Source: Chiloscyllium plagiosum (lineage: Eukaryota). From it: a stretch of DNA of 64,000 bases. Below the pieces are notes generated by a model. That model searched no databases, was not told the origin of the DNA, and was given only the letters and a program-made list of their open reading frames with translations. The position numbers and the translations under genes were made by a program. Positions 1 through 51,467 of this stretch are shown piece by piece; within the stretch, counting starts at the first letter, position 1; each line of letters starts with the position of its first letter. The stretch covers positions 76,641,316 through 76,705,315 of the forward strand of contig NC_057718.1 of NCBI RefSeq assembly GCF_004010195.1. The letters run 5' to 3'.

Positions 1-140
1 ACACTTTCCTCATTCCTGAAGAAGGGCTCATGCCCGAAACGTTGATTCTCCTGCTCCTTGGATGCTGCCTGACCTGCTGCGCTTTTCCAGCAACACATTT
101 TCAGCTCTGATCTCCAGCATCTGCAGTCCTCACTTTCTCC
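1..140 (+). mobile_element. Penelope-like terminal repeat (family A) with minimal hammerhead motif at 16-43, cut by the window edge
   Basis: CTGAAGA-A-GGGC-TCAT-GCCC-GAAA-CGTT followed by the family tail ...catctgcagtcctcactttctcc, shared with copies at 4230, 14162 and 49544. Confidence 0.8.
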
Positions 141-1780
141 TTTTGAAAGTTTTTGCCTAATACCATCAAAATTAGCCTTTCTCAAATTTAGAACTTTGGT
201 CTATCCTTTTTCATTGCTATTTTAAAACTAATAGAATTATGGTCACTGGCCCAAAGTGCTCCCCCACTGACACCTCAGTCATTTGTCCTGCCTTATTTCG
301 CAAGCATGGGTCAGGTTTTAAACCTTCTCTAGTAGGTACATCCATGTACTGAATCAGAAATTTTTCTTGTACATGCTTAACAAATTCCTCTTCATCTAAA
401 CCCTTAACACTATGGCATTCCCAGTTTATGTTTGGAAAGTTAAAATCTCCAACCATAACTACCCTATTATTCTTACAGATAACTGAGATCTCCTTACAAA
501 TTTGTTTCTCAATTTCCCCGAGTCTTACAGGGTCTATAATACAGACCCAATAATTTCTCAGTTCAACCCCAAATAACTTCCTAGATGTATTTCCGGGAAT
601 ATCCTCCCTAAGTACAGCTGTAATGCTAGCCCTTATCAAAAACGCCACTCCCCCTCCTCCCTTGCCTCCCTTTCTGTCATTCCTGTAGCATTTGTATTCT
701 GGAACACTAAGCTGCCAGTTCTGTCCATCCCTGAGCCTCGTTTCTGTAATTGTTATGATGTTCTATGTTCCTAACCATTCCCTGAGTTCATCTGCCTTCC
801 CTGTTAGGCCTCTTGCATTGAAATAAATGCAGTTTAATTTATCAGTCCTACCTTGTTCTCTGCTTTGTCCCTGCCTGCCCTGATTTTTGACTCCCTTCTA
901 TTCTCAACTGTACCAGTCTCAGATTGATCTCTTCCCTCACTATCTCCCTGTGTCCCACCCCCACCCTCCCAAACCCCATCTCAGTTTAAGTTTAAATCCT
1001 CCTGAGCAGCTCTAGCCAATCTCCTCGCCAGTATATTAGTCCCTCTTCCAATTCAGGTGCAATCCGTCCTCCTTGTGCAGGTCTTATTTTGTTCCAAATG
1101 CTACATCCATTTAGGTAGTGGGTCTCATTACCATTTTGTCCTCCTTTGACTTTATTTGCTGCTGTTTTTCAATGTCTGTACACTCTACCCCTTCTTGTCC
1201 CACTCTGGGGGTCAAATTGATGCCCTGCAATGCTGTCCCATCCTTTTGCTTTGTAAGTCTATGTTTTTGCTCCCCTCATTTCTCCTGCCCTCTAATTTAG
1301 TTTAAAGCCCTAGTTATTCAATTCATTAGGACATGGTCCTAAACATTTCAAGTAAAGCCTGTTCTTCTGGGACATTTCCCTTCTACCCAGTATTGTTGCC
1401 AGTGCCCATGCACTGAAACATATTCCACCACGCCAAATATTGAGTCATGTATTTAACTCCTCAGCTTTATTCACCTTGTGCTAGTTTGCCTGTAGCTTGG
1501 GGAGCAATCCCAAGATAATTACCTTGAAGATTCATCTTTTAAATTTAAGTGATATTTGTTCAAAATCTTTTGGCAGAACCTTCTTTAGTTCTGCAATCCA
1601 TTCATACCAGCATGGATGAAAATAACTGGATCCCTCCCCCCCTCACTCCAAGTTCCTCTCCAACCCTGAGAAAATCTCCTCGACCCTGGTACTGAGCAGG
1701 CAACAAAGGCTTTGTGACTAATGCTGATAGGCACAGAGAACTGCATTTATTCCCTCAAATTGTACTGTCCCTTACCAGTC
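141..1780 (-). mobile_element. CR1 LINE fragments (APE endonuclease region and ORF1 esterase-like remnants)
   Basis: ORF 217-648 contains VVMVGDFNFPNINWE. A CCL..RV-like ORF1 remnant lies near 1680-1705 on the - strand. Confidence 0.8.
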
Positions 1781-1989
1781 TTTTGTCTTATCTCTGCTCA
1801 CTTGATTGCCTCTCTGTATCACGGTACGGGTGGTGCGTTTACTCATCCTCAGTCCTTATTCTCATCCATATAGCTTACGACAATCTTGTAACTGTTAAAG
1901 AGTTGCTGGGGTTGGGACACCTCAAATGCTACCCCATAATTCCCTCACCTGCAGTCCTGACCTCAAAGTGGATTTGGACTCTTGGCCTC

Positions 1990-3312: not shown

Positions 3313-5376
3313 GAGAGGGGCATGATGGATGTTGAGTTTAGGGATAGACATTTGAATACTCTTGGTCAAGTCAGCATGAGGAGGGAGGAATTGTTGGGTA
3401 TTCTAAAAGGCATTAAGGTGGACAGGTCCCCACGTCAGTTACTGAGGGAAGCAAGAGAGAAAATAGCTGGGGTCTTAACAGATATCTTTGCAGCATCCTT
3501 GAACACAGATTAGGTCCCGGAGTACTGGAAAATTGCTAATGTTGTCCCCTTGTTTAAGAAGGGTAGCAGGGATAATCCATGTAATTATAGACCGGTGAGC
3601 CTGATGTTAGTGGTAGGGAAGCTGCTGGAGAAGATTCTGAGGGATAAGATCTATTCCCATTTGGAAGAAAATGGACTTATCAGTGATGGGCAATATGGTT
3701 TTGTGCAGGGAAGGTCATGTCTTATGAACTTAATAGAATTCTTTGAGGAAGTGACAAAGTTGATTAATGAGGAAAGGGCTGTAGATGTCATATACAGGGA
3801 CTTCACTAAAGCGCTTGATAAGGTTCCCTGGTAGGCTGATGGAGAAGGTGAAGTCGCATGGGATCCAGGGTGTACTAACTAGATGGAAAGAGAATTGGCT
3901 GGGCAACAGAAGACAGAGATTAGTAGTGGAAGGGAGTTTCTCAAAATGGAGAACTGTGACCAATGGTGTTCTGCAGGGATCTGTGCTGGGACCACTCTTG
4001 TTTGTGGTGTACATAAATGATCTTGAGGAAGGTGTAGGTAGTCTGATTAGCAAGTTTGCAGATGACACTAAGATTGATAGTGAAGTGGACTGTCAAAGAA
4101 TGCAGCAGACTATAGATAGATTGGCGAGTTGATCAGAGAAATGGCAGATAGAGTTCAATCCGGGCAAATGCACGGTGATGCATTTTGGAAGATCCAATTC
4201 AAGAGCGAACTATACAGTAAATGGAAAAGCTTAAAAATGTGTTGCTGGAAAAGCGCAGCAGGTCAGGCAGCATCAAAGGAGAAGGAGAATCGACGTTTCA
4301 GGGATAAGCCCTTCTTCAGGAATGAGGAGGGTGCGCCAAGCAGGCCTGCTTGGCACACCCTCCTCATTCCTGAAGAAGGGCTTATGCCGAAACGACGATT
4401 CTCCTTCTCCTTTGATGCTGCCTGACCTGCTGCGTTTTTCCAGCAACACATTTTTAAGCTCTGATCCCCAGCATCTGCAGTCCTCACTTTCTCCTAGGCC
4501 TGCTTGGCACACCCTCCTCATTCCTGAAGAAGGGCTTATGCCCGAAACGTCGATTCTCCTTCTCCTTTGATGCTGCCTGACCTGCTGCGCTTTTCCAGCA
4601 ACACATTTTTAAGCTCTGATCCCCAGCATCTGCAGTCCTCACTTTCTCCTAGTAAATGGAAAAGTTCTAGGGAAAATTGAGGTACAGAGAAAGCTGTGTG
4701 TTCAGGTCCATTGTTCCCTGAAGGTGGCAATGCAGGTTAATAGAGTGGTCAAGAAGGCATATGACATGCTTTCCTTCATGGATGGGGTATGGAGTACAAG
4801 AGTTAGCAGGTTATGTTACAGTTGTATGACTTTGGTTCAGCACACTTGGATTAATGCAGTTTTGGTCGCCACATTACCAAAAAGATGCGGAGGCTTTGAA
4901 GAGGGTGCAGAAGAGATTCGCCAGGATGTTGTCTAGTATAGATGGTGCTAGCTATGGAGAGAGGTTGAGTAGATTAGGATCATTTTTATTAGAAAGATGA
5001 AGGTTGTGGGGGGGGGAGCCTAATTGAGGTCTACAAAGTCATGAGATGTATAGACAGGGTGGATAGCAAGAAGCTTTTTCCCAGAGTGGGGGACTCAATT
5101 ACTTAGGGTCACAAATTCAAACTGAGAGGGGAAACGTTTAGTGGAGATATGCATAGAAAGTTCTTTATGCAGAGGGGTGGTGAGTGCTTTGAATGGATTG
5201 CCAGCAGAGATGGTAGAGCCAGGCACAATAGCATCAATTACGATGTATCTAGGCAGGGAGCAAAGAGATACAGATCTTTAAAACAGAGGTGACATGTTTA
5301 GATAGAGGATCTGGATCAGCGCAGGCTTGGAGGGCCATAGAGCCTGTTCCTGTGCTGTAATTTTCTTTGTTCTTTG
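3313..5376 (+). mobile_element. 5'-truncated CR1 LINE (RT domain to 3' tail), frameshifted
   Basis: FKKGSRDNPCNYRPVSL, QYGFVQGRSCLMNLIEFFEEVT, GVLQGSVLGPLLF, SKFADDTK. 3' tail ttctttgttctttg. Confidence 0.9.
4230..4650. mobile_element. Penelope-like terminal-repeat cassette (family A): one inverted plus two tandem copies, three hammerhead motifs
   Basis: 14-bp TSD AGTAAATGGAAAAG at 4216-4229 and 4651-4664. Palindrome centre AGGCCT at 4342-4347. Motifs at 4292-4319 (-), 4370-4396 (+) and 4524-4551 (+, intact). Confidence 0.85.
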
Positions 5377-6204
5377 CCTTGAGACTTGCCATCACAGAAA
5401 AATAGAAACAGCAGAAGGAGCATGCTTCCACACCAATGCCCCACCTACCCTTCCCCTGATCACTACCTGACCAAGTGTGACAGAGCCTGTGGTAGCTGCA
5501 TTAGTCTGTACAGCTGCCTATGGACCCATCCTGAGAGTGGAAGAGAGTCATCCTTTATTGCATGGGACCACCAATGATGATGAAGGAGGGAATTTCAGGA
5601 TATTGATATTAAAGGAATGATAATACATTTCCAAGTTAGGATGGTGAGTGGCTTGGAGGGGAACTTGCAGAGGGTGGTGTTTCCATGTACAAATGGAAGT
5701 GGTTATGGGTTTGTGAATTTCTGCGGTATGTCTCGTAACCCTTACACTTCTACTACTGAGCATCAGTGATGGAGGAAGTGAATGTTTGTGGATGTGGTGC
5801 CAATCAAATAGGCTGTTTTGTCCTGGATGGTTTCCTGAGTATTATTGAAGCTGTACTGATCAAGACAACTAGGGAGTATTCAATCATATTCTAGACTTTA
5901 GCCTTGTGGATGGACAGGCTTTGGTGAGTTACTTTCTGCAGGATTCCAAACCTCTGACCTGGTCTTGTAGCCACTGCATTTATGTCATTCATCTAGTTTC
6001 ATTTTTGGTCAATAGAACGTCCAGGATGTTAATAGTGGGGACTGAGTGATGGTAATGCCATTGAAATGTAAAGATAGAATCCAGCTGAGATTTATTGCAA
6101 CTCAGTAACATATATAAATATTACACGAACAGGCACATCAGTGTCTGGGCTCACATTAATTTATTGGATTACAAAGAGCAACATGCCTCCATCAATGTGT
6201 CATG

Positions 6205-6330
6205 TTTCCTGATTAAGGAGCAGCACTGCAAAAAGGTAGTACTTCCAAATAAATCAGTTGGACTATAACCTGGTGTTGTGTGATTTTTAACTTTGTCTAT
6301 CCCAATTCAGCACTGGCACCTCCACATCAT
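6205..6330 (+). mobile_element. Degenerate Penelope-like terminal repeat (family C)
   Basis: Shares ccaaataaa...ttggactataacctggtgttgtgtgatttttaactttgt...cacctcca with 40967-41099. Confidence 0.65.
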
Positions 6331-6967
6331 GCTTCAGATGATTCAAGTTAAAATGACATAAAAGACTCTTATACCCACAGATTGTGTGCTATGACTGTAT
6401 GATATCATGAGCTTATCTTTTTGTGATATACTGATTGTGAGACATAACACAACAGCTGCCAGATCAGCTGAGTATTTCCAGCACTTCCCTTTTATTTGCT
6501 TGATTGCGAGCAGTTGCAATATTTTACTTTTATTCTGAATGAATTCTGACAGGACTTAATTAGTCTGAACATTGTGATCTGGGTCTAGGGTTTCTACTGA
6601 TTTGTACTGGTCTTACCGGCACTTTCACATGAAATCAGCCAAAACAGCATAAAATACTGCTAAATTTTAACTGCATGTAATGTCTTTAACACTGGTTCAG
6701 GTACCATTGTATTGAAGGGGACTTCGTCATCAGCTCAAATTAATGATCTGGTAAATTTCTCTTCAATGTGCCTGTTCAAGGAGGCTTTTCAAATTAAACT
6801 AAATATGTGAACATAAATCCACTAATTGGTAAGTTTTTATAATGTTTATTTAAAATATTTACTTTACTAAGAAACTGTTTGCTGTAGACTAATGTAACTA
6901 ATAAAATATTCTGTACAGTTTTTTTTGAAAAGTAGTTTTTATTTAAGACCAGTTTATTTACAATTGT

Positions 6968-7275
6968 GGTTGGCACAGTAGCTCAGTGGTTAGCACTGCT
7001 GCATCACAGGGACTCTGGTTTGATTCCAGTCTCAGATGACCATCTATTTCGAGTTTGCAAGTTCTTCTTGTGTCTGCATGGGTTTCCTCCAGATGCTCCG
7101 GCTTCCTCCCACAGTCCAAAGATGTGCAGTTTGATGGATTGGTTGTGCTAGGATTAGGCCTGGGAAATGAAGGGTTACAGGAAGGGGTAGGTCTGGATGG
7201 GATGCTCTTCTGATGGTCAGAGTGGACTTAATGGGACGAATAGCCTGCTTCTCCAAGGTAGGGATTCCATGATTC
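6968..7275 (+). mobile_element. tRNA-derived SINE (HE1/V-SINE-like)
   Basis: ggcacagtagctcagtggttagcactgctgc head, gggtttcctcc...cccacagtccaaagatgtgc core, CR1-like tail. Confidence 0.85.
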
Positions 7276-7849
7276 AATGGTGTATACTAGATACTTCATT
7301 TAAAAGATGCTTCTATTTTTAATATATCTATTTTACCCTATGTTAATAAAACTGTATCTTGCTACCACTTACCACTTTTTAATTGCCAAGATAAATAATG
7401 ATATTCTATTACGCTGCTTGATTGCACTGGATCATTGGTACTTTCTTGTGTGATTTTGCAAATATCAGTTTAGGCAGAAATTTGCCCTTTAACTTTAGCA
7501 AATTGTTATCATTTCAAACAAAGTGCACCCTAATGCTGTTTGTACCCAACTGGAAACTCCACATCATTAATTTGTACCCTTGCAGATCTAAATACAAGGA
7601 TGGGAAAGGACTGCTGTTCAGCAAGAGAAATGGGTGAACGCATTAACCACTTTCAGAAATCACAGTGAAATGTGAAATTAATGTTTTAGGGCAAGTTGAG
7701 ATGTATGACTGATCAGCAATCTACCTTTGTAGCACAAAACGCTACCACATAATATGCGCAAAACAACATAACAGGAACGTTCAACATTGTGCACATATTC
7801 CAACTGTTATGGAGTACATTTAGAGCCAATCATGGAATTACAGAATTCA

Positions 7850-10480
7850 GTATCACAGAATTACTACAGTGCAGAAGAAGGTCATTCGGCCCATAATGTC
7901 TCCATTGGTTCTCAGAATGAGCATCACAACATAGTTCTATTGCCTTGCCCCTTCCCTGTAGCCCTGCACATTATTTCTATTTAAATGATCATCCAATTGC
8001 TTCTGTAATGCCTCAAATGAACGTGCCTCCACCACGTTTCCAGTCAGTGTCTTCCAAATCTGAACCACTTACTATGTGAAAGAGTTTTTTTTCTGATATC
8101 TCATCTACTTATTTCGCAAATCACTGTATTTCTCTGCCCTATTTTTGGCTCTTTTTTTTGAGCAGGAACAATTTCTCCCTGTTTACCAGACCTTGCAGTG
8201 CATCTTTTCTTGGTGAACTACACATGTACTGCAATACAAAATTCTCCTGAACGCAGTCTAAGAATGCTTGCCCCTCTCTGCTCTTAACATCATCACTTTC
8301 CCCGTAAATAATCAGCAACTGAAGTCCCCCATTATTACTAGTCTATAATGCCTGCACCTCTGTAATTTTCCTGCACATTTGTTCCTCTCTATCCTTCCTA
8401 TATGTTGATGGCCTATAGACTAGATCAAGCAACTTAAATCCATTCTTTTTGTTCCTTCGCATCAGACAAATCAAATTTGTCCTTGAACACTCGAGGTATC
8501 TTCTTTTTCCAGTACAGCAATAGTCTCCTTTACTAAGACCACCATCCCTCCTCTTTTGCTTTCTTTCCTATTTTTCTTGAACACCTGGTAGTCGAGAATA
8601 CTTAGCACTCAGTCCTTCCCGTCCTTCAGCCAACTCTCTGATGTCACCACATCATAACACCATGTGGCACTCTGCACCTGTAACTCAGCAGTCGTCTTTA
8701 CTGTGTGTCATGCATTCAGTACTAGTTGTATAACAGTAATTTAGAATGTCTCCATCTCCAATTTCTCCATCACCCCAACTCCACCTATTAATGTACTATT
8801 CTTACTTCTAGTGCTGGTTGTCCTAATATTCTATGCACACTGGCATTGTTCTCTAATATTCTCTCCTGGATAGCACATCCTGGCAGATTTAGTTTCAAGC
8901 CTCCTCAACAACATAAACAACACAACTTACAAGAAAATCAGTTCCAGTTCTATTTGGCTTGTATAGGTTCCATTTCCCCGGCGCCATTTCCAGTGACCAT
9001 AAGACATAGGAGCAGAAATTAAGCCATTCGGCCCATCGAATCTGCTGTGCCAATCATTGCTGATACATTTTTTTCAACGCCATTCTCCCACTTTCTCCCC
9101 GTAACAGAGTCATAGAGTCATAGCATAACCTTTGATCCCCTTGACAATCAATAACCTATCTATCTCTGTTTTAAATTTACTCAATGACCTGGCCTCCACA
9201 GTCTTCTGAGGCAATGAATTCCACAGATTCACCACACTTTGGCTGAATAACTTTCTCCCTATCTTCATTCTAAAGGCTCTTCCCTTTATTCTAAGGCTGT
9301 GCTCTCAGGTCCTAGTCTCTTCTGCCAATGGAAACATCTTCCCTACATCCACTCTGTGCAGGCCATTCAGTATTCTGTAAGTTTCAATTAGAACTCCCCT
9401 CATCCTTCTAAACTTCATCAAATATAATCCCAGAGTCCTCAAAGTTCCTCATATGTTAAGCCTTTCATTCCTGGAATCATTCTTGTGAATCTCCTCCAGA
9501 CCTACTCCAGGGTCAGTACATCCTTCCTAAGGTACGGGGCCCACAATTGCTCATAATATTCGAAATGTGGTCTGACCAGAGCTTTTAAAAGCCTCAGAAG
9601 TACATAGAACATTACAGTGTAGTACAGACCCTTCAGCCCTCAATGTGAAACCAATCTGAAGCCTATCTAACCTACACTATTCCATTCTCATCCATATGCC
9701 TATTCAATGACCATTTAAATGCCCTTAAAGTTGGCGAGTCTACTACTGTTACTCTGAGTAAAGAAATTACCTCTGACATCTGTCCTATATATATCACCAC
9801 TCAGTTTAAAGCTATATCCCCTTGTGCTAGCCATCAACATCAAAGGTAAAAGGCTCTTACTGGCCAACCTATATAAACCTCTGATTATCTTGTACGTCTC
9901 AGTTAAGTCAGCTCTCAACCTTCTTCTCTCTAATGAAAACAGCCTCAAGTCCCTCAGCCTTTCCTTGTAAGACCTTCCCTCTATACCAGGCAACGTCCTA
10001 CTAAATCTCCTCTGAATCCTTTACAAAGCTTCCACATTCTTCTTATAATGTGGTGACCAGAACTGTATGCAGTACTCCAAATGTGACCACACTAGACTTT
10101 TGTACAGCTGTAGCATGATCTCATGGTTCTGAAAATCAATTCCTCTACCAATAAAAGCTAACACATTATATGCCTTCTTAGCAATGTTATCAACCTGGGT
10201 GGCAACTTTTAGGGATCTCTGTACCTGGACACCAGATCTCTCTGCTCATCTACACTACCAGGAATCTTATCATTAGCCTAGTATTCCTGTTACTCCTTCC
10301 AAAAGTACATCCTTGCTTTTCTATTCTCGTCCTCTCGTGATGGATCATGACATTGTGTTTGCCTTCCTAACTACCAATTCAACCTGCAAGTTTACCTTAA
10401 CAGAAGCCTGGACTGGGAATCCCAAGGCCCTTTGCACTTGAGATATCTAAGGACTTTGTCCGAGGAATTTGAAGTCCGCC
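7850..10480 (-). mobile_element. Cluster of nested CR1 fragments
   Basis: Several CR1 3' ends (e.g. SYKERLRDLRLFSLERRRLRADL). An inner copy at about 9606-10302 is flanked by AAGTACAT at 9598-9605 and 10303-10310. Confidence 0.8.
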
Positions 10481-10504
10481 TGCACTATCTTTCTAGACAT
10501 GCAC

Positions 10505-13562: not shown

Positions 13563-14161
13563 TATAGTAAACATAGTGCGCTGCTGAGTAAGTTAGTAAA
13601 AGAGTTATGAATGAACAAATGGAAACTTAGTATTAGTAAACATAGCATGCTGATGAGTGAGTTTGTAAAGAGAACTATAATACAATATCTCACAAGGGCG
13701 ACGTCCAGAAGCCTGACTCCACTCTGACAGCTTTGTAAAGTGCCAGGTAAGGTTACGCCAAGTTCCGAAGAAGAGCCATCGGACTGGAAAAGTTAACCGT
13801 GTTTGTCTCTTCTAAGATGCTCCTTGACCCATTGACTTTCTCCAGTAGTTTGTGTTTTTATTAATGTAAATGTTCAGCTTTAAAGTCATTTTTAAAATTA
13901 TTTTGTGGTTTCAGATGCTCATTAAAAATTATTTTGTCTTATTATAAAACTGGCTTTATAATACACTAGATAGCTGGGCTGGATCATCAGAGAGGATCAT
14001 CAGTCAATGATAACAGTGGATGTACCTAGCATTTTCTGAAATAAACACCTGTTTTGATTTCATAGTAGATTCAGGCATGTCATAACAGAAAATTTTGATT
14101 TGCTGAACAGGGAGCTGGCAGTGTTAATTCAATTGTTTAATCTTGGCTAAGCTATATAGAG

Positions 14162-14335
14162 CTTGAAAATGTGTTGCTGGAAAAGTGCATCAGGTCAGGC
14201 ACCATCAAAGGAGCAGAAGAATCGACGTTTCGGGCATGAGCCCTTCTTCAGGAATTCTTCAGGAAACTTGCTGCGCTTTTCCAGCAACACATTTTTAAGC
14301 TCTGATCTCCAGCATATGCAATCCTCACTTTCTCC
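14162..14335. mobile_element. Penelope-like terminal-repeat cassette (family A), inverted arms, intact hammerhead motif on - strand (14224-14251)
   Basis: TSD TAAGCTATATAGAG at 14148-14161 and 14336-14349. Confidence 0.85.
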
Positions 14336-15244
14336 TAAGCTATATAGAGGTACTTCTAGGTCACATAGGCAATAGGTATTTGTCACTACTTTCTCAAACT
14401 GTAATATTGATCTTGATAGACCGGTGAGTATGAAATTCACTTTGGCTTGTACACTCAGACTTTCAACTAGAAAATACCTTAACCTCTATTGCTGATGTTA
14501 CATTGCTTCCCAAGATATTGATTAAAAATTAAAATCTTTCAGTCAGTCATAAAGTCTGCATTGCCATCTCATTTTCCCAGCAAAATCTTATATCTTATTC
14601 TGCCTTTAATATAGTAAAATATTTTTAAGATACTTGACAGGCTTAATCAAATGAATATGTAAAGATTGGTGTCCCAAAGCTTGGTGAAAGAGGTGCATTC
14701 AAGGTCCAGCGCTAAAACAACTCATTTCTGTGTAATTAGTGTTTCTGGTTTAGCGCTTGCTTCCTCTTCATCCTTCCTCATCTAACAGCATCACCAAAAC
14801 TTTCTATTCCTTTCTCTGATGTAGATCTTCAATTTTCACAGGTTTATCTTTGGGTATTGTTGTGATGTGATTACTTAACATATTCAGATAGATTATGGTA
14901 CATGTCTGGGGCAGATAGGACCTGAACACAGTCCTTCCAGTACAGTTAGGGACACTGCTGCTGTGCCATAAAAACCCTCCCTTGTTGTGATGTAAAATTA
15001 TAAGTTGTAGTTCAAACATAGCAATTAGCCAATTGTCATGAAAGTCTAAATTAACTACCACAGCTTCTGATTGCCACATATCTAACTGCTAATTGCTCTT
15101 CAATATTCCATTGCAATAGCCATTCAAGACGGTCCTTAAAGGGTTGTTTTTTAAATAATCAACTACGATGATTCCTGAGGCATGATAAATTTCAGTTTCT
15201 GATAGTTTTTAATTCCATTCTCATGCAACTTCTCTTATTCCTAG

Positions 15245-18035
15245 GTTGAAGAAATTGCTTGAACAGGAAAAATTCTACCAGGCACGGAAGGAAAAGGAGA
15301 ACAACAAGCGATTGAGCAAAGTGCGAGAGGAGCTGGGCAAGTTGAAATCATTTGCACTGATGCTAGTGGACGAACGACAGATTCACATTGAACAGCTCGG
15401 CCAGCAAGCACAGAAGTTGCAGGAGCTGGGCCAGAAACTCCAAGAGGAGGAAGAGAAATCCCGAAGTCTTGATGAAAGAGCTAGGGAGGAAAGTCAGAGA
15501 GTAATCCGGCTTGAGGCAGAACTTGGACACAAGTCTGCCAAGTCTTTGCAGGAGCATGATGAGATGATGGCCAAACTAGCCACCCAAGAATCTCAAAACC
15601 ACCGGTTACGACAAAAGCTGTCCAGTTTAAACTGCCGACTTGAAGAGCTGGAGGAAGCCAACAAAAGCCTACAGAAGGCCAAGGAGGAACTTCAGGAATT
15701 GCAGGTTAAAATTAGCCATGGAGAGTGTGGAAACTCCAGTCTGATGGCTGAGGTGGAAAACCTGCGAAAGCGGGTACTAGAGATGGAGGGAAAAGATGAA
15801 GAGATAACTAAGGCTGAAGATCAGGGCAGGGAACTAAAAAGGAAATTGGAAAAGGAGGAGCTCCATAGTAAGGAGCTGAAAATGGAAGTGGAAAAACTAC
15901 AGAAGAGAATGGTTGATCTAGAAAAATTGGAAGGTGCCTTTAACAAAAGCAAATTTGAATGTTCACAGCTACATGTTAGCTTAGATAAAGAAAGGAATCT
16001 GGCAAAAGACTTGGTCAACGAGTTGGAATTGGTGAAAGCCAGAGTGAAAGAACTTGAAACATCAGAGGCCAGACTGGAAAAAAGTGAATTCCTCTTGAAA
16101 GATGACTTGACAAAGCTGAAGTCTTTTACTGTGATGTTAGTAGATGAGAGAAGAGGTGTGGCAGAAAAGTTGCATCAGGAAGAACAGAAAGTGAGTGATC
16201 TTAATAGCAAGTTGATGCAGGAACAAAATAAAACAACAGAGATAACAGAGAAGCTGATTGAAGAGAGCAAGAAGCTTCTCAAATTGAAATCGGAGATGGA
16301 AGAGAAAGTGTCTGCCCTGCTCAACGAAAGAAATGAATTGAAGGTAAAGCTCAAAGATGAAGAACAAAAATCGAATGAGCTGAGCTTTAGAGTTGGCCTG
16401 TTGAAGAAGAGGCTTGACCGTGTAGAAGAAACTGAAAGTGATACCCTCCGAAATAAGGCCAAGAAAGAACTGGACAGACTTCCAGAAGACACTGGACTTG
16501 ACAATAATAAAATAAAAGAGCTAACGTTGGAAATCGAGCGGTTGAAATCTCGATTAAAGCAGCTGGAGGTGGTGGAAGGTGATCTGATGAAGACTGAGGA
16601 TGAATACGATCAGCTAGAGCAGAAATTCAAGACTGAGCAGGACAAAGCAAACCTCCTGACCCATCAGCTGGAAGAATTAAAAAAGCAGATGACCAGGGGC
16701 AAGGAGAAAGGAGAAGCCTTGACCCTGGAGGCTGAGGCTCGTAATCGGCTTCGACTCGAGGAGGCAGAGGTTCAAGCACTCAAGGAGAAGATTCATGAGC
16801 TGATGAACAAGGAGGACCAACTCTCCCAACTGCAGGCCGATTACTCCATCCTCCGGAAGAAATTCCAACAAGAGGAAAGTAAAAACAAAGACATGGGCCA
16901 GGAGGTGGTCAGCTTGGCAAAGGAGCTGGAGCTATCCAAACGATACAGCCGGGCCCTGAGGCCCTGCCTCAATGGCAGAAGGATGGTCGATGTCCCAGTC
17001 ACATCCACAGCCGTCCAGACCGAAAGCCCACCCAATGGGCTTGGGGAAGAAGACAATGCTGCAGTTTTTATCCGAAAGTCTGTCCAAGAAGAGAACCACC
17101 TGATGAGCAACCTCAGGCAGAAGAAGCCCATGGAGCGGCCCTCGGTGCTGGAGCGCTATCCACCAGCTGCCAATGAGTTAAACCTAAGGAGATCATGGAT
17201 CCCCTGGATGAAGAAGAAGGAGAACAGCACTGAGAGAGCCACTCAGGCCAGTGCAAACCCCAGGGAGGTGATCGTGGCCCAGAGGCAAGGCCAGCCACTG
17301 CACATTCGAGTGACCCCTGACCACGGCAACAGCACTGCCACTCTGGAGATCACCAGCCCGTCAGCTGAAGACTTCTTCTCCAGCACCACAGTCATCCCCA
17401 CCCTGGGTCAGCAGAAGCCGCGCATCACCATCCTGCCCGCTCCCACTGTTGCCTCATCCAAAGGCAAAGCCTCAGACAGCTCCTTCTCACCAGAGCGTGC
17501 AGCATCTCCTGTTACAATCACCACTTTCTCCAGGGCTACCTCCCCCCCAGAAAGAGGCAAGGCTGCCTTTCTGGACACAACTACTTGTCCAGACACATCT
17601 GCCTCCCCCATTCAGATCATGACAGTTTCTACTTCGGCAGCCCCCGAGTCTTCAGTCCCTCCGAATCAAGCCCAGGAACCAGCCATGGGACGGGCAGTTT
17701 TCAAAGTGTCCCCAGAGAAACAGACGGTGCCAACACCAACTCGAAGATACAGCCCAAACACCAACATCATAACGACTGAGGACAACAAGATTCACATCCA
17801 CCTGGGCAGTCAGTTTAAAAGGCCCGGCAGCAGCTACACCGAAGACACCAGCCCTCTGATAACTGTTCGGCCTCTGTCTGTTGCTGGTGGGTGTGAGAAC
17901 AAGGAGGTGACAATGGGAACAGTTCTCCGTTCCCCTCGTAACTGCACTGCTCCTAAAAACTCAACCAACAAAATGACCAGCAGCATCACTATAACTCCAG
18001 CCAGTACCACATCCACAAGGACTACAACGTCAGTG
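15245..18035 (+). CDS. FILIP1: Filamin-A-interacting protein 1 (FILIP1-type), large internal coiled-coil/C-terminal exon (2,791 nt)
   Basis: Polypyrimidine tract and TAG acceptor end at 15244. The stop-free frame reads (R)LKKLLEQEK...KLKSFALMLVDER...GECGNSSLMAEVENLRKRVLEMEGKDEEI...SWIPWM...QGQPLHIRVTPDH...NIITTEDNKIHIHLGSQFKR, matching recalled FILIP1 motifs. GTGAGT donor at 18036 (phase 0). Upstream exons were not found in the window. Confidence 0.95.
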
Positions 18036-37840: not shown

Positions 37841-38138
37841 CATGCCAACAGCCATCCTGAACACATATTTTAGCAGTTCCTCTCTCCCACCTTACCTCCC
37901 ATTTACCCAAGCGTCACCTTACTTTGGTATCTGTCTCTTGTAAAGCATATATTTTTCTACATTAGAAGAGCTATATAAACAAGAATAAAGCACTCAATTT
38001 GACCAAAGATAGGTGGGCTACTACTGCTCCCTCTGCCTCAATCCCAGTCATTTGTCACTCGTGCCTTTTGTCCCTCTCCTCTCCCCATCATCATCTAGCC
38101 AGCCATCCAGCTCCTGGTAAGGCTATAAAATGCTTGAT

Positions 38139-38553
38139 TCTGGATTAGTGGTGCTGGAAGAGCACAGCAGTTCAGGCAGCATCTGAGGAGCAGTAAAATC
38201 GACGTTTCAGGCAAAAGCCCTTCATCAGGAATAAAGACAGAGAGCCTGAAGCGTGGAGAGATAAGCTAGATCAGGAATAAAGGCAGAGAGTGTAATAGTG
38301 AAACCCAGCAGGGTTGACACTAAAATGAGGTAATGGAGCCTCGCCCCCTCCCCACCAAAAATTGCTGAATTTCTCCAAGCACTTTCTGGCTTTTGCCCGA
38401 AACGTTGATTTTACTGCTCCTCAGATGCTGCCTGAAGGGCTTTTGTCCAAAACATCGATTTTACTGCTCCTCAGATGCTGCCTGAACTGCTGTGCTCTTC
38501 CAGCACCACTAATCCAGAATCTGGTTTCCAGCATCTGCAGTCATTGTTTTTAC
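38139..38553. mobile_element. Penelope-like terminal-repeat cassette (family B), inverted arms with tandem partial copies
   Basis: Imperfect TSD ctat(a/g)aaatgcttgat at 38123-38138 and 38554-38569. - strand motif CTGATGA-A-GGGC-TTTT-GCCT-GAAACGTC at 38201-38228. Confidence 0.8.
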
Positions 38554-39115
38554 CTATGAAATGCTTGATCCAGGTTTGAGAACTAGCGGAAGGTAGCAGC
38601 TTGAGAAACCCAGTTTCATGAAAGGAACATTTAGGTAATTCCCAACAAAGCCAGGTTATTATTTGGTGCTGATTATTGGCTCAAGCACAAGCTGAAGTTT
38701 AATCAAATACGGTTTGCTTGGATCCTGGGTATAGAAGGCAAAATTACTCTTTGACTGAGGCTGCACAAGATGTTTTTGTTGATGAGGTAATGGAATTGAA
38801 ACAGTCTGGAATTATTTTGAAGTCAGATTCTGTTTTTTATGTTTCTTTAGCAGTTTGTTACAAAGCTGCACAGTATTTCAGCTTTCAGGTCAGCAAAATG
38901 TTGCACAAAAAGTAGTAAATTTATGCAGATACTCAAACTAGATTTTTCTTAATATCACAAGACACCTTCATTGTAGCCGACCGATTTACATGCTACTTTG
39001 CTCAAAGAATAGTAATAATGGGGCTAATTGGTGCTGCTTTGATCCTTAGTCCACGCTGTGTTGGCTGATGCCATTTAGGTGGATGGAAACATCAATTGAA
39101 GTTCCCATTCCTAAT

Positions 39116-39136: not shown

Positions 39137-39184
39137 ATATACACTTTCTGTGTGTCTGTGTGCATGTGCACGTATGGGCACGCA

Positions 39185-41635
39185 CCATTCGGCCCTTTGA
39201 ACCTGTTCCATCATTCAGTAAATTTATGACTGCTTTAATTACCCTATCTTCTTGTCTACTGTAGACCTTCATCCCTTATACATCAGGAATCTTCCTACCT
39301 CAGCCTTAAAAATATCCGAAGACTCAACTTTCACACATTTTGAGAAAGGGAATTTCTCAGATTCACCACTCTTTGGCAAAAAATGTCTCCACGTCTCTGT
39401 TTTAAATGAGGGAACTACTTTTTTAAAAAATAGCTACTGCTATTTCTAGAGTCTTCCACAAGAAGAAATATCCTTTCCACAGCATCAAAGTTTCTATCAA
39501 GTCACCTGTCACTCCACTGATCTCCAATGGATGCAAGCCTAGCCTATCAAACCTTTCCTCATAAAACAACCATGCATTCTAGGTAACAGTCTAGTATACT
39601 TTCTCTGACTTGCTTCCAATGCATATTCATCCTTCCTTAAATAAGGAGACTAATAGTGTACACAGTACTCCAGATGTGGTCTTATCAATGCCTTTTACAA
39701 CTAAAGCATAACCTTCCTACTTTTATAATCAATTCCCCTCATAATAAATGATAACCTTACTTTGGCTTTCCTAATTATTTGCTGTACTTGCATACTAAAC
39801 TTTTATGGTTCATGCAGGAGGACATCCAGATCCCTCTGCATCTCAGTACTCTTCAGTCTTTCATCATTTAGATAAAATGCATCTTTTTTATTCTTCCTGT
39901 CAAAATGGACAATTTTACATTTTACTGCCTTATAATCCATTTGTCAGATCTTTCTTCACTCTTTGAATCAATCTCTATCCCCTTGTGTACTCTTCACATC
40001 TTGCTTTCCTGTCTATCTTTGAGTCATCAACAAACTTAGCAACCAGACCTCTAGACCCTTCAGCTAAGACATTTATATATAGTGAATCATAGAATCATAT
40101 AATTTACAGTACAGAGGAGGCCAATTTAATCCATTGTGCCTGTACCAGCTTCTGAAATAACTATCCAGTTAATCCCGTTCTCTAAACCTATCTCCACAGT
40201 CTTTTAACTTCATCACTTTCAAATATACATCGAGCTCTCTTTCAAACCTTCTCATGGAATCCACCTCCACCACTCTTTCAGGCAGCACATTCCAAATCCT
40301 AATAATTCTCTGAGTAAAAACATTTCTCCTCATTTCATTCCTAGCTGTCTTGCTGACAAACTCGAAATTGTGATCCCTAGTTACTGACCTATCAACAAGT
40401 GGAAACAGAATATACTTTTCTACCCTATCAAAATTGTTCATAATTTTGAACACCTCAATAAGGTCACCTCTTAACCTTCTCTGCTCCAAAGATAATGAAC
40501 CAAATCTCTCAAATCTTTTGTTGAATCTAAAATTCCTCATTATTGGTATCATTCTAGTAAATCTCCTTTGCACTCTCTCCTAGGCAGTTAATGTCCTTTC
40601 TTAAATAAGTTGTCAAGAACTGAACACAAAACTCCAAATGTGGTCTGACCAATGATTTATAGGGATGTAGCATCACTTCCTTATTTTAAATTCTATGCAT
40701 CTATTTATAAATAGAAGAATCCTTTAAGCCTTCTTAACAACTGTTTCAACTTGCCTGTCCACCTTCAGAAAATTATACCCATAAACCCTGAGGTTCCTTT
40801 GCTTCTGTGTTCTTGTCAAAGTTGGACCCTTGAGTCTGCATTGTCTCTCAGTATTTCTTCCACCAAACTGCATTACCCTACATTTTTATGCATAGAGATT
40901 CATCTGCCAGGTGTCTTCCCATTTGGCCAACCTGTCAATATCTCTCTGAAGTCATTCAAAGTCATCAGGCGTCCACAATCACCCAATGAAGGAGCAGCGC
41001 TCCGAAAGCTAGAACTTCCAAATAAACCTGTTGGACTATAACCTGGTGTTGTGTGATTTTTAACTTTGTACACCCCAGTCCAACACCAGCACCTCCAAAT
41101 CAAAGTCATCTTTGCAATTCACTATTCTCCCTAGCTTAATATCATCTCAAAATTTCATACCTATTAGACAGCTTCAAGGAATCCTGGGTTTCCTAGACCT
41201 GCTGTCTCCTCTCCTTTGGCAAATGGTCACCCATTCACCTGCAATCTCAGTATTCCTCCTCTGCTGCTTCTCAGAAGGTGGAGCAAAACCATTGTGCCAA
41301 CCTGAAAATAATTTATTTACACCTACTCTTTATACTTATCATAAGTCACCTAATTACTTCATGCCAATATGCTATCCTCTATACCATGAGTTTTTTATTT
41401 TCTCAATAATCTTTGATGTTACAGCTTACCAAATGCCTTCTGAAATCTAAGTATAATACATTCACCAGCTCCACTTTATCCACAACATATTTCTTTCTTT
41501 AAAGATTCCCCAAAAATATAAATCTTGCCTGATTATCTTGGAGTTTTCTGCATGTTCTGTTATAATGTCTTCAGTAATGGCTTCCAACAGATGTTTAGCT
41601 AGCCTGTAGTTTCCTCCTTTCTGTCTCCCTTTGTG
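39185..41635 (-). mobile_element. Two or more CR1 fragments
   Basis: SLEQRRLRGDLIEVFKIMNNFDRV...NVFTQRIIRIWNVLPE and QKGGNYRL remnants. Confidence 0.8.
40967..41099 (+). mobile_element. Penelope-like terminal repeat (family C) inserted in CR1
   Basis: 11-bp TSD TCAAAGTCATC at 40956-40966 and 41100-41110. Motif (CCA)ATGA-A-GGAGC-AGC-GCTCC-GAAA-GCTA. Confidence 0.75.
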
Positions 41636-43684: not shown

Positions 43685-44970
43685 TGACAGAGTCAGAGTC
43701 ACAGAGATGTACAACCTGGAAACAGACTCTTTGGTCCAACTCGTCCATGCTGACCAGATATCCTAAATTAATCTACTCCCATTTGCCAGCACTTGGTCCA
43801 TATCCTTCTAAACCCTTCCTATTCATATACCCATCCAGATGCCTTATAAATGTTGTAATTGCACCAGCCTCCACCATTTCCTCTGGCAGCTCACTCCATA
43901 CATGCACTACACTTTGCATGTAAAAGTTGCCCCTTAGGTCCCTTTTAAATCTTTTCTCTTTCACCCTAAACCTTTGCCCTCCAGTTTTGGACCCCCCCCC
44001 CCCACACACACCTAGAGAAAAGACCTTACCTATTTACCCTATCCATGCCCGTCATGATTTTATAAACCTCTGTAAGGTCATTCTCCAGACTCCTATGCTC
44101 CAGGGAAAATAGCCCCAGCCCATTCAGCTTCTTCCTGTAGCTCAAACTCTCCAACCTTGGAAACATGCTTGTAAATCTTTTCTGAAACCTTACAAGTGTC
44201 ACAACACCCTTCCTAAAGGAGGAAGATCAGAATTGCACACAATATTCAAAAAGTGGCCTGGCCTAACCAATATTCTGTACAGCCGCAACATGACCTCCCA
44301 ATTCCAATAAGCAATGCTCTGACCTGGGTGGCATGTTGGCTTAGTGGTTAGCACTGCTGCCTCATATCGCCAGGGACTCAGATCCAATTCCAGCCTTGAG
44401 CGACTGTCTGTGTAGAGTTTGCACATTTTCCCCGTGTCTGCGTGGGTTTCCTCTGGGTGCTCCGGTTTCCTTCCACAATCTAAAGATGTGCAGGTTAAGT
44501 GAATTAGCTATGCAAAATTGCCTATAATGTTCAGGGATGTGTGGGTTAGGTGCATTAGTTAGGAGTAAGTGTAGGGGAATGGGTCTGGGTGGGTTCCTCT
44601 TCAGAGGGTCGGTGTGGACTTGTTGGGCCAAATGGGCAAAAGTGAGGACTGCAGATGCTGGAAACCAGAGTTTAGATCAGCGTGGTGCTGGAAAACCACA
44701 GCAGTTCAGGCAGCATCCTGCTCCTCGGATGCTGCCTGACCTGCTGCCAAATGGCCTATTTACAATCTGTAGGGATTCTATGATTCTATGATAAAGGCAA
44801 GCATACTAAACACCTCTTCACTATCCTAACTACCTGTGACTCCACTTTTAACGAACTATGAACCTGCACTCCAAGGTCTCTTTGTTAAGCAACAGTCCCC
44901 AGGACCTTACCATTAAGTGTGTTAAGTCCTGCCCTGATTTGCCTTTCCAAAATGCAGCACTTCACATTTG
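43685..44970 (-). mobile_element. CR1 3' fragment interrupted by a SINE
   Basis: RFKRDLRGNFYMQSVVHVWSELPEE. The element resumes at about 44790 after the SINE. Confidence 0.85.
44326..44790 (+). mobile_element. HE1/V-SINE-like element, itself interrupted by a Penelope-like terminal repeat at 44636-44745
   Basis: SINE head, core and (attct)n tail. The insert is flanked by GCCAAATGG at 44627-44635 and 44746-44754. Confidence 0.8.
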
Positions 44971-47512: not shown

Positions 47513-47614
47513 AATTGTTCATGAAAAATACCACTCATGTTGCCACTGAATGGTAGGAGTGCAAAATAGCTAACTTCATCTGATGATTAAATGTTTTGAA
47601 ATACCTTAGGCTTT

Positions 47615-48933
47615 TGGATGTAGGTTTGCTTGCTGAGCTGGAAGGTTGATTCCAGACGTTTCGTTACCCTACTAGGTAACATCTTCAGTAGGCCTCAGGC
47701 AAAGCAATGCTGAAAATTCCTTCTTTCTATCTATATGTTTGGGTCGGTGATGTCATTTCCTATGGTGATGTTATTTCCCTTCGTGAAGTCACTTCCTCTT
47801 CCTTTTCTCAGGGGGTGGGTAATGGGGTCTAACTCGATGTATTTGTTGATAGAGTTCCGGTTGGAATGCCATGCTTCTAGTAATTCTTGTGTGTGTCTTT
47901 GTTTGACTTGTCCTAGGATGGATGTGTTGACCTTCCTCATTCGTATGTGAGGATACTAGTGGGAGAGGGTCATGTCTTTTTGTGGCTAGTTGGTGTTCAT
48001 ATACAGTGGTGGCTAGTCTTCTGCCTGTTTGTCCAGTGTAGTGTTTGTTACAGTCCTTGCATGATATTTTGTAAATGACGTTGGTTTTGCTCATTGTCTG
48101 TATAGGGTCTTTCAAGTTCATTAGCTGCTGTTTTAGTGTGTTGGTGGTTTGTAGGCTACCATGATGCCAAGGGGTCTGAGTAGCCTGGCAGTCATTTCCA
48201 AGATGATTTTGATGTAGGGGAGAACAGCCAATGGGGAACTTCAAACCAGCGTCTACAGGAAAACAACACATACAGACCAAATATTGAAGTACAGAAGCAA
48301 TCATCCCAACACCCACAAACGAAGCTGGACATTATTTCAATGAGCCAACACACACTGCAGCACAGAGGAACTATGCAGAGCAGAGGAAAATCACCTACAC
48401 CGTGTATTAAAAAAATGGCTACCCAATGAACACAGTCCGCCGATTTCTCAGCAACAAACCCAAACAAGCAGACAAAACATATCTAGAAACCCTAGCCACT
48501 CTCCCCTACAACTAGCCACAAAAAGACAAGACACTCTCCCACTAGTATCCTCACATACGGATGAGGAAGGACACCACTTCGACTGGGACAAACATCCAGC
48601 CTAGACAAGTCAAACAAAGACATGCATGAGAATTCCGAGAAGCATGGCATTCCAACCGGAACACTATCAACAAACACATCGAGTTAAACCCCATTTACCA
48701 CCCTCCTGAGAAAAGGAACAGTAAGTGACTTTACCACAGGAAATTACATCACCACAGGAAATGACATCACTAACCCAAACCTATAAATAGAAAGCAGGAT
48801 TTTTCACCTGAGTCCCACTGAAGATGTTATCTAGTAGGGTAACGAAATGTCTGGAAATGAACCTTCCAGCTCAGCAAGCAAACCTACATCCAAAACCTCA
48901 ACCTGAGCTACAAATCTTCTCAAAGCTTATTAG
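47615..48933. mobile_element. Truncated Penelope-like retroelement (Poseidon-like): GIY-YIG endonuclease on - arm, RT C-terminal region on + arm, inverted terminal repeats with hammerhead motifs
   Basis: - strand KDPI..SKTNVIYKISCKDCNKHYTGQTGRRLATTVYEH. + strand F.TSVYRKTTHTDQILKYRSNHPNTHKRS. TSD TACCTTAGGCTTT at 47602-47614 and 48934-48946. Confidence 0.88.
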
Positions 48934-49261
48934 TACCTTAGGCTTTCAGGGTGATATTAGGTAGTTTGGGCATTTTCAGATGTGAAAGTGGCAGTCTTAT
49001 GTTTGTTGATGAGTTTACATGAAACAAGTAAGCAATGTTCTATTCTAGATAGCCAATATTCCACAGAATATATTTGATGTAGCCTAATTCAATGTCTAGC
49101 TTAAATGGTGAGCAAATGGCTGCGGCCTCTTTATGAGGGTGCTAAATGGCTAGTCTTGCAGTACTTGAAGGACACTGGGAGACAATCTTTCCACATCAAA
49201 CTTGTCAAGTCCTCTAAGAATATTGAGCACTCCATTCTAAAGAAGGGTCACTGGATTTAGA

Positions 49262-51467
49262 GTTATAGAGTCACAGTCCAACCAGTCCATGCCGACCGTA
49301 ATTCCAAACTAAATTAGATCCCTCATTTCTTTTTAAATCTTTCTTCACTCACCTTAAAAATATGCGCCTTAGTCTTGAAATCCCCCATCATGGGGAAAAG
49401 AGACCTGCCATTCACCTTATCTATACAGTTCATGATTTCAAAAACCTCTATAACATCACCCCTCAACCTACTACTCTCCAGTGAAAAATGTCCCAGTCGA
49501 TCCAGCCTCTCCTTATAACTCAAACCTTTCATTCTCAGCAACAAGCAGCATCAAAGGAGAAGGAGAATCGACGTTTCAGGCATAAGCCCTTCTTCAGGAA
49601 TGAGGAGGGTGTGCCAAGCAGGCTAAGATAAAAAGTAGGGAGGAGGGACTTGGGGGAGGGGCGTTGGGAATGCAATAGGTGGAAGGAGGTTAAGGTGAGG
49701 GTGATAGTCCCTCCTCCCTACCTTTTATCTTAGCCTGCTTGGCACACCATCCTCATTCCTGAAGAAGGGCTTATGCCCGAAACGTTGATTCTCCTTCTCC
49801 TTTGATGCTGCCTGACCTGCTGCGCTTTACCAGCGACACATTTTTAAGCTCTGATCCCCAGCATCTGCAGTCCTCACTTTCTCCTATTCTCAGCAACATC
49901 CTAGTAAATCTCTTCTGAACTCTCTCCAGCTTAATAATATCTTTCCTATAGCAGGGTAACCTGAACTCCAGAAGAGGCCACAGGACAACCTCAATATGAC
50001 TTCCCAACTCTTATACTCAAAAGTCTGAGCAATGAAGGCAAGCATACTAAACGCTTCTAAATCACATGTGATATAAACTTTAAAAAATTTGTGTACCTGA
50101 ACCGCTAGGTTTCTCTGTTCTACAACACTACCCAAAACCCTACTTCTAATTGTACAAGTACTACGCTTGTTTGTTTTACCAAAATGCAATATCTTGCGTT
50201 GATCCAAATTAAATTCAATCCGCCAGTCCTCAGCCTTTTGAGCTAATCGATCAAGATCTCTTTGTAATCTTAGATAACCTTCTTCACTGTCCACCATACC
50301 ACCAGTTTTGGTGTCATTTGCAAACTTACTAACAATGCTTCTATATTGTCATCTAAATCATTTATATAAATGACAAACAAATGTGCACCCTGTGTAACAC
50401 TGCTAGTAACAAGCTTCCTGTTCAAAAGACAACTCTCCACCACCACTGTTTCCTGCCATCGAGCCAATTTTGTATCCAATTGGCAAGCTCATCCTGAATC
50501 CTTTGTAAACTAATTAGTCCACCATTTGGAACCTTGTCAAAGTAAACAATGTCTACAGCTCTGCTCAAGAAATTCAATCAAGTTTGTGAGATATGACTTC
50601 CCTTGCACAAAACCATGCTAACAATGCCTAATCATTCCTTGCCTCTCCAAAATGTATAAAATTCTGTCTTTCAGGATCATCTCCAAAAATCCTGAGGTTA
50701 AAGGGTGACCTTATCGAGTGTTTTACAATCATTATGGATATAGATAAGGTGAATGGCAGGTGTCTTTTCCCTATGGTGGGCAATTTCAAGACTGAAGAGA
50801 AAGATTTAAAAAGGACGAGGGGCAACTTTTTTACACAGAGGTTGGTTCGTGTACGGAATGAACTTCCAGAGGAAGTGGTGAGTGTAGGTACAGTTACAAT
50901 GTTTAAAAGACATTTGGATAAGTACACGAATAAGAAACGTTTGGCAGGATATGGGCCTAGTACAGGTAGTTGGGACTAGTTTATTTTGAGATTACGGTCG
51001 GCATGGACTGGTTGGACCGAACGACTGTTTCCATGCTATGTGACACTACAACTTACCCACCACCAAAGTCAGACTCACAGGTCTATAGTTTCCAGGTTTG
51101 TCCTTATATCCCTTTTTAAACAAAGCACAACATTAGCCATTCTCCAATTATCCGACACCTCACCCGTAGTTATAGATGATACAAATATTTCTGAAAGGGG
51201 TCCCACAATTTCCTCCCTGTCTTCCCCAATGTCCTGGGATACACTAGACCTGGAGATTTATCCACCTTTATATTTCTTAAGACCTCTTGCATATCCTCTT
51301 CTGTAATGTGAATTGTTTTCAAAACATCAATGTGTATTTTTCTGCATTCACTAGCCCCCATTTCTTTCTCCACACTAAAAACTGACGTGTAATATTCATT
51401 TAATATCTCTCCCATCTCATGAGGTTCAACACCAAGATAACCACTTTGATCTTTAAGGGGTCTACTC
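49262..51467 (-). mobile_element. CR1 LINE with nested insertions (family A cassette, and a + strand CR1 3' end at about 50690-51050)
   Basis: LSYKERLDRLG.FSLE.SRLRGD, YLRLQRDLDRL, LFVIYINDLDDN, EPHEMGEILNEYY. Confidence 0.85.
49544..49885. mobile_element. Penelope-like terminal-repeat cassette (family A), inverted arms, two hammerhead motifs
   Basis: 13-bp TSD ATTCTCAGCAACA at 49531-49543 and 49886-49898. Motifs at 49570-49597 (-) and 49759-49786 (+). Confidence 0.85.

Follow-up and report, generated by a model that had tools for sequence, protein, structure and literature searches.

We analysed a stretch of 64,000 nucleotides from Chiloscyllium plagiosum (contig NC_057718.1, positions 76,641,316 to 76,705,315; host genome size, 3.56 Gb), hereafter called the window, whose first letter is position 1. 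It carries short repeats that are very probably the 3' terminal regions of Penelope-like elements (PLEs), belonging to three lineages and present as 5'-truncated insertions. Each lineage bears the minimal type-I hammerhead ribozyme motif (HHR) typical of this class, which is likely to self-cleave after GUC or CUA. Twelve such motifs were counted in the window, the core being intact in ten and decayed in two.

Structure of the hammerhead motifs

Three types of stem II were distinguished: GGGC/GCCC in family 1, GGAGC/GCUCC in family 4 and GUUACC/GGUAAC in family 3. The CUGANGA and GAAA boxes are present, as are the U and the H that precede the predicted cut, and the cleavage triplet is predicted to be GUC in families 1 to 3 and CUA in family 4. 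The unpaired nucleotide that follows A9 is A in families 1, 2 and 4 and U in family 3, and the first stem-II pair, G10.1-C11.1, is G-C in all three stem types. Helix III is absent; in every intact copy, GAA and the cut are separated by a palindrome, ACGU or AGCU. An earlier note on this DNA had described a constant core, a stem II that differs and yet always pairs, and a 4-nt palindrome in place of helix III, in agreement with the three stem types read here. It had also identified the fold as the minimal type-I hammerhead of Penelope-like elements, and the features do agree with the published motif. Genome samples of 31 family 1 copies and 30 family 4 copies were examined, their classes being read by eye; in the latter, the core was CTGATGA in 21 and CTGACGA in 2, so that CUGANGA was kept in 23 of the 30.

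Between lineages, the pairs 10.2-11.2, 10.3-11.3 and 10.4-11.4 differ on both sides (G-C/G-C/U-A, G-C/A-U/U-A and C-G/G-C/A-U, respectively). Within families, the stem variants are mostly G-C to G-U transitions, that is, neutral decay of the copies; a two-sided change (GAAGC/GCUUC) was seen in one family 4-type copy (L200). The covariation announced in the earlier note was thus retained for the comparison between the three lineages and dropped for the variation inside each family. A MAFFT alignment across the three families placed the stems out of register and was discarded; the pairs were read by the script descriptor instead.

The nine sites named in the earlier note all contain the motif that it stated. 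The endings and cores that it gave needed correction at three of them: at 16 and 49759 the last letters are CGTT and not CGTC, and at 40983 the core is decayed (CCAATGA). Beyond these nine, motifs were found at 4295 (minus strand), 4370 (plus strand, stem II one base short), 33987 (minus strand, decayed) and 6208 (plus strand, decayed).

The loose pattern CTGANGA-N4-30-GAAAC matched 11 times in the window, against a mean of 1.46 and a maximum of 5 in 100 shuffles. With a strict descriptor (core, optional bulge, stem II of at least 4 bp, GAAA, self-complementary dinucleotide, U then H), 9 matches were obtained; 300 dinucleotide shuffles gave 0.01 on average, three of them with a single match each. 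The expected rate derived from these shuffles is about 8e-8 matches per base and strand. The nine strict matches are copies of three stem-II types, and the independent cases are three lineages, not nine; by our own arithmetic, the probability of a chance motif in the ~1-kb 3' region of three separate element lineages is negligible. A match at 17625 (minus strand), inside a CTTNBP2-like exon and without a stem, was rejected as fortuitous.

Other details of the motif surroundings were noted. In family 3, a perfect 5-bp hairpin (UGGAA-UCAACC-UUCCA; 47641-47656, minus strand) lies directly past the predicted cut and would compete with helix I. The family 3 ATG (47680-47682 and 48824-48826) spans A9, the bulged U and G10.1, and its frame is open through the tail (in the inverted arm, over 46 codons). 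Loop II of family 1 contains an ATG whose frame shuts after 10-26 codons in the copies read.

Linkage to reverse transcriptase and endonuclease reading frames

As a test of the Penelope assignment set beforehand, the earlier note had proposed to look for a link between these repeats and open reading frames (ORFs) for reverse transcriptase (RT) and GIY-YIG endonuclease. Such a link was found for all three stem types: an RT plus GIY-YIG ORF lies upstream of the motif, as seen for family 3 in the window itself, and for families 1 and 4 in copies from the genome. The minus-strand ORF of family 3 (47789-48331) contains a GIY-YIG-type block (...VIYKISCKDCNKHYTGQTGRRLATTVYEH...) and ends 100 nt before the motif 47688-47655; 152 genomic relatives of it were scored out of 99,218 first-look candidates.

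For family 1, the upstream extension of two copies (L025 and L027) is the end of an ORF (...EEERLIF.LGTLQP.G.N..F), and loci fetched by the 3' untranslated region contain ORFs with IIYCIRCTRCGLLYIGETGRLLVERFREH about 250 nt upstream of the motif. The block IIYCIRC...LYIGETGR was accompanied by RT motifs in the ORFs of L067, L072, L074 and L091-L093; in family 1 loci the RT motifs (...FLQTKGVAMGTRMGPSYA...YIDDCIG) lie upstream of the GIY-YIG block. Pfam matches occurred in colinear order (GIY-YIG, E 3e-4; RVT_1, E 2.6e-3 and 0.2). Furthermore, longer database relatives of the family 1 ORF (P0005 and P0007, 40-47% identity) combine RVT_1 with a C-terminal GIY-YIG domain, which in P0007 scores 24.1 bits, above the Pfam cut-off. 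The nearest named relative, a partial one, is a Chiloscyllium protein.

The converse selection gave the same association. A family 1 motif was present on the same strand, 1,475-1,975 nt downstream, in 13 of 30 loci chosen by RT homology alone. Similarly, for family 4, 30 loci were selected by homology to an endonuclease found upstream in L112; in 10 of them, this query locus being counted, a GGAGC-type HHR was found 395-1,283 nt downstream.

Three long family 1 copies are 5'-truncated with inverted arms, and four copies with long apparent open frames contain N runs of 1,642-2,441 bases. The sole upstream motif on the same strand, in L147, is an independent stub; at L155, a single case, the HHR of an upstream copy runs on into the next ORF. 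In the PLE copies L154-L157, L126, L138 and others, N runs of 1.4-2.4 kb cover the coding region, and the open frames of 800-1,000 codons are inflated.

A family 1 35-mer has 34,225 exact matches in the genome, a family 4 22-mer has 3,918 and a family 3 34-mer has 72. The first of these figures, together with a copy length of mostly 100-135 bp and the LINE (long interspersed element) endonuclease and RT remnants that adjoin the window copies, would suit a short interspersed element (SINE) or a LINE 3' tail in which the hammerhead-like string is a coincidence. We regard this explanation of family 1 as scarcely credible: it is contradicted by the longer copies, which run upstream into a GIY-YIG/RT ORF and not into a LINE, the LINE remnants are targets split by the element, and a matching core was found in two other PLE lineages.

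Relation between the families

The earlier note had counted at least three unrelated families. In alignments of 85-93 nt, the family 2 copy at 38204 (minus strand) matches family 1 copies at 82-86%, and family 2 is thus a diverged relative of family 1. In the window comparison, no nucleotide match was obtained between family 3 and families 1, 2 or 4. At the protein level, the endonuclease of family 1 matched that of family 4 (29% over 107 aa, E 3e-8) and that of family 3 (37% over 51 aa, E 2e-7); on degraded pieces, no significant match was found between families 3 and 4. From these alignments, families 1/2, 3 and 4 are the 3' terminal regions of three deep PLE lineages within a single retroelement class. 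As the endonucleases are homologous, the motif was inherited within this one class and is not common to unrelated elements, and the claim of unrelatedness had to be abandoned.

Insertions in the window and in the genome

The PLE-derived pieces of the window, 12 in number and together about 5% of its length, are as follows (TSD, target site duplication).

1-140, plus strand: family 1 PLE terminal copy clipped by the window start; HHR 16-43 ending in GTT; the extended tail ends at 140.
4230-4650, plus strand: family 1 insertion; inverted arm 4230-4343 with HHR 4292-4319 (minus strand); forward unit 1 at 4344-4495 (plus strand) with HHR 4370-4396, one base of stem II being lost; forward unit 2 at 4496-4650 (plus strand) with HHR 4524-4551; TSD AGTAAATGGAAAAG at 4216-4229 and 4651-4664.
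6208-6329, plus strand: decayed family 4 copy starting at the 5' edge of the HHR; core CTGATTA, broken stem.
14159-14334, minus strand: family 1 insertion; forward arm with HHR 14251 to 14224 and short tail; inverted arm consisting of the long tail alone; TSD TATATAGCTTAG at 14335-14346 and 14147-14158.
23304-23380, minus strand: 5'-truncated family 2-type fragment; tail alone, with the long extension.
33987-34016, minus strand: decayed family 3-type HHR (CTGATGA-T-GTTAC...); stem and GUC lost.
38137-38553, minus strand: family 2 insertion; forward arm with HHR 38228 to 38201; two inverted partial arms upstream; long tail; TSD CAAGCATTT(C/T)ATAG at 38554-38567 and 38123-38136.
40967-41100, plus strand: short family 4 copy with long tail and without inverted arm; HHR 40983-41011, core decayed; TSD CAAAGTCATC at 40957-40966 and 41101-41110.
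44639-44747, no strand assigned: inverted pair of family 1/2 tail pieces without HHR; CCAAATGG on the flanks.
47611-48933, minus strand: family 3 PLE insertion; forward arm with the GIY-YIG remnant ORF 47789-48331, HHR 47688 to 47655 and short tail; inverted arm ~48340-48933 with HHR 48818-48851 (plus strand) and a longer tail; TSD CCTAAGGTA at 48934-48942 and 47602-47610.
49544-49885, plus strand: family 1 insertion; inverted arm from 49544 to ~49689 with HHR 49597 to 49570; forward arm 49690-49885 (plus strand) with HHR 49759-49786 ending in GTT; TSD ATTCTCAGCAACA at 49531-49543 and 49886-49898.
51482-51520, plus strand: family 2-type tail fragment of 39 nt.

Clear TSDs of 9-14 bp were found at six of these insertions, five of which have on their 5' side an arm that is inverted and 5'-truncated. 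In 14159-14334 and 47611-48933, the tail of the inverted arm is longer than that of the forward arm. The insertion at 4230-4650 interrupts a LINE reverse-transcriptase remnant.

The palindromic insertions also gave sub-threshold scores with Rfam microRNA (miRNA) models at 4304-4385 (mir-3158, 48.5 bits) and 49578-49777 (MIR1858, 82.3 bits). These matches were discarded as artefacts of the inverted arms. Hairpins produced by palindromic PLE insertions could pass for miRNA genes, or could supply small-RNA pathways.

In the genome samples, an inverted arm began at most 60 nt upstream in 15 of the 31 family 1 copies and in 9 of the 30 family 4 copies, an unrelated flank began 0-9 nt from the core in 7 and 6, respectively, and 9 and 14 were extended upstream; one family 4 copy was truncated within the core. 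The sequence shared by the family 1 copies usually starts within 3 nt of the motif and stops 90-130 nt past it. Two classes of 3' end occur: of the 31 family 1 copies, 19 end near +90 (...CATTTTCAGCT) and 12 near +127 (...CACTTTCTCC), and in family 4 the copies end near ...GATTTTTAAC or about 37 nt further on. These two 3' ends ~35 nt apart match the optional 30-40 bp PLE 'tail'. An automated search for TSDs around the short copies gave too few clean cases for a judgement on a further, cap-derived G ahead of the 5' end.

The term 'retrozyme-like' used in the earlier note implies another kind of element: short non-coding, non-autonomous units in tandem, whose transcripts cut themselves by means of dimeric hammerheads, become circles and are copied back by the enzymes of PLEs. 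The insertion at 4230-4650 does contain a head-to-tail tandem (4344-4650; 1.9 units of 152-155 bp), many copies consist of the HHR plus tail alone, and the available part of a 2026 preprint (10.64898/2026.07.22.740005) derives animal retrozymes from the pseudo-long terminal repeats (pLTRs) of PLEs. This tandem is the sole one in the window, and arrays were absent from the 61 sampled genomic copies, which were single, in inverted pairs or extended. Moreover, every well-preserved insertion of the window is bounded by a TSD of its own, longer copies continue straight into the RT/endonuclease ORF, and the units are not delimited by the predicted cleavage site, which a circle-derived copy would suggest; their ends coincide with the 5' edge of the motif and with two 3' sites located 90-130 nt beyond the cut. 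A retrozyme origin is therefore very improbable, and the term does not suit copies that are dispersed, flanked by TSDs, 5'-truncated or reduced to HHR-plus-tail stubs, and often provided with an inverted 5' arm. The single dispersed copies of the window are most likely inert relics of PLE termini.

Probable cleavage of the element RNA

Hammerhead cleavage leaves a 5'-OH end. In two of the 30 best U6 loci (L164 and L181), the 3' U-tract of U6 is joined directly to GATTTT..., the first bases past the predicted GUC cut. The partner in both of these PLE-joined U6 loci is a family 1/2-type tail, which begins exactly at the predicted 5'-OH product and runs to the tail end. In L181 the identical junction is present in both inverted arms, and therefore a chimeric RNA was the template. 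U6 terminates with a 2',3'-cyclic phosphate, and ends of these kinds are ligated by RtcB (Moldovan et al. 2019, PMC6789731, available in part). As indirect evidence from two loci, the junctions make it likely that the predicted hammerheads cut the element RNA in vivo. In the mechanism that we propose, two motifs would pair via the ACGU or AGCU palindrome and so form helix III; cutting would need this dimer and probably the protein of the element too, as published for other PLEs. U6 with its 2',3'-cyclic phosphate would then be ligated to the 5'-OH end left by the cut, and the chimera would be reverse transcribed.

About 11 of the 30 best matches to U6 (L162, L169, L170, L174, L179, L182-L187) have a tRNA-like SINE head (GG..GGCACAGTGGCTCAGTGGTTAGCACTGCTGCC...) starting 0-16 bases past the U6 3' end. 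U6-SINE chimeric retrocopies seem common in this genome.

A number of results weigh against the interpretation of the stubs as PLE termini with a self-cleaving motif. The Pfam scores of the degraded family 1 ORFs fall short of the gathering cut-offs, because the copies are broken by frameshifts. Among the long copies inspected, none was found with the motif in both flanking repeats, the 3' side alone being seen. None of the Rfam hammerhead models (types I, II and III, HH9 and HH10), which include helix III, matched the window at gathering score, and there was no hammerhead among the 13 Rfam matches at E up to 10; the search with hammerhead models suggested in the earlier note thus fails with curated models. 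Helix I has 2-3 contiguous bp in the window and in the family 4 sample (AUUC/GAUU with a U-U mismatch, CUA/UGG and CAC/GUG). Compensatory changes come solely from the comparison between three lineages. RNAfold and RNAcofold, applied to single and paired motifs, recovered stem II alone, and neither the hammerhead nor a dimer. Chimeric U6 loci are few (the two of 30 described above). Polyadenylated (polyA) single-cell RNA reads on 4330-4700 (1,932 in one run, none in a second; both strands) gave no end pile-up and no drop across the predicted cut, this type of library being ill-suited to finding cleavage ends. Published activity of PLE minimal hammerheads in vitro is poor (PMC4209133), and, in the available part of PMC11167929, cleavage of a PLE hammerhead elsewhere occurred only with the protein of the element.

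Of the 1,932 reads, 97% continue into unlike sequence. Since the reads cross the cut on both strands without end pile-up, the embedded single copies are passive passengers of host transcripts and for the most part stay uncut, the behaviour predicted for a dimer-dependent motif.

Several of these points would also be accounted for if the motif were kept for a non-catalytic role, for example as a structure in the PLE leader that binds protein or serves the start of translation, and did not cut in this animal: the very short helix I, the fold without thermodynamic support, the weak published activity in vitro and the reads of this species that cross the predicted cut. In addition, the available part of PMC11167929 reports that catalytic mutants of the Anolis element left insertion in vitro unaffected and that no Anolis RNA-seq read begins or ends at the cut; as in that element, the family 3 ATG over A9-U-G10.1 opens a frame through the tail. 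On the other hand, all catalytic core nucleotides are kept in three lineages with unlike stem sequences, and in both PLE-joined U6 loci the PLE part begins exactly at the predicted 5'-OH product. We consider a purely non-catalytic role improbable, and a cutting motif the better explanation.

Two points are of mild interest: the 5' ends, which cluster at the border of the motif, and the U6 junctions. We tentatively raise the possibility, itself rather doubtful, that the HHR-plus-tail stubs of about a hundred bases are complete reverse transcripts of the element's RNA leader and not random 5' truncations: reverse transcription would start at the copy of the internal initiation site that the leader itself contains, and run off the RNA 5' end at the hammerhead edge. 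If true, this would mark the transcription start and explain the abundance of the stubs; together with the U6 junctions, it would mean that the genome keeps a fossil record of vertebrate PLE hammerhead cutting in the germ line.

Other features of the window

A 943-codon open frame at 15213-18044 (plus strand), rich in coiled coils and with a Pfam CortBP2 match (E 3.7e-10), is probably a large exon of a CTTNBP2-like gene; the PLE pieces of the window would then be intronic or flanking. Minisatellites of 20 bp at 53317-54985 and 55973-57924 (85 and 98 copies, 87-88% matches) cause long spurious ORFs in all frames; on their flanks are LINE RT remnants and a gap of 500 N (52650-53149).

Comparison with known systems

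Minimal hammerheads in the pLTRs of metazoan PLEs were described in 2014 (Cervera and De la Pena, PMC4209133), and the find itself is ordinary. The host, a shark-type genome, is unnamed in the main text of that paper, and a search of the available literature for shark or elasmobranch PLE hammerheads gave general reviews and genome papers alone, none on this host. The interest lies in the material: the genome holds tens of thousands of young copies of several lineages, in which ends, inverted arms and U6 junctions can be counted. Such counts could serve as tests of how reverse transcription is initiated by PLEs and of whether their weak ribozymes are active in vivo. Moreover, annotation based on Rfam overlooks this entire class of ribozyme motif.

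The motifs share with those of PMC4209133 the CUGANGA and GAAA boxes, the unpaired nucleotide between A9 and 10.1, the G10.1-C11.1 pair, the absence of helix III and the palindromic 15.2-16.2 positions. Likewise, families with differing stem II occur within one genome, there are opposite-strand pairs 100-700 bp apart, and most copies are single, which was attributed there to truncated PLEs. They differ from them in a helix I of 2-3 bp, against 4-5 bp in Schistosoma, in a family 1 stem II of merely 4 bp and in a copy number far above the 4,000-9,000 of coelacanth and Xenopus. The short helix I is no bar to membership of the minimal hammerheads, because helix I of Drosophila virilis PLEs has 2 bp (PMC4209133).

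In the Poseidon PLE of Anolis carolinensis, PAc (Frangieh et al. 2024, PMC11167929, available in part), the optional tail is tied to two adjacent RT start sites, and the protein cleaves and extends both DNA strands. The inverted arms observed here fit cleavage and extension of this type. The two 3' ends ~35 nt apart and, in family 3, the HHR overlapping a start codon also recall PAc, whose ORF starts at stem II. The elements of this species are described here from sequence, and no ORF start of a full-length copy was seen.

Animal non-LTR retrozymes (Cervera and De la Pena 2020, PMC7229834; Li et al. 2026, the preprint cited above), as far as the available sources describe them, resemble these stubs in carrying type-I hammerheads of PLE ancestry on short non-coding units. 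Unlike their tandem arrays, in which units run from cut to cut, the present copies are dispersed, TSD-flanked stubs whose ends lie off the cut. The junctions at L164 and L181, finally, are like the chimeric U6/LINE-1 pseudogenes formed via RtcB ligation, in which, in the available part of PMC6789731, the 3' end of U6 is placed on the 5' end of a retroelement RNA that is then retrotransposed. They differ from these, whose truncation points are variable, in that the partner is a PLE tail and that both junctions fall on one predicted ribozyme cut.

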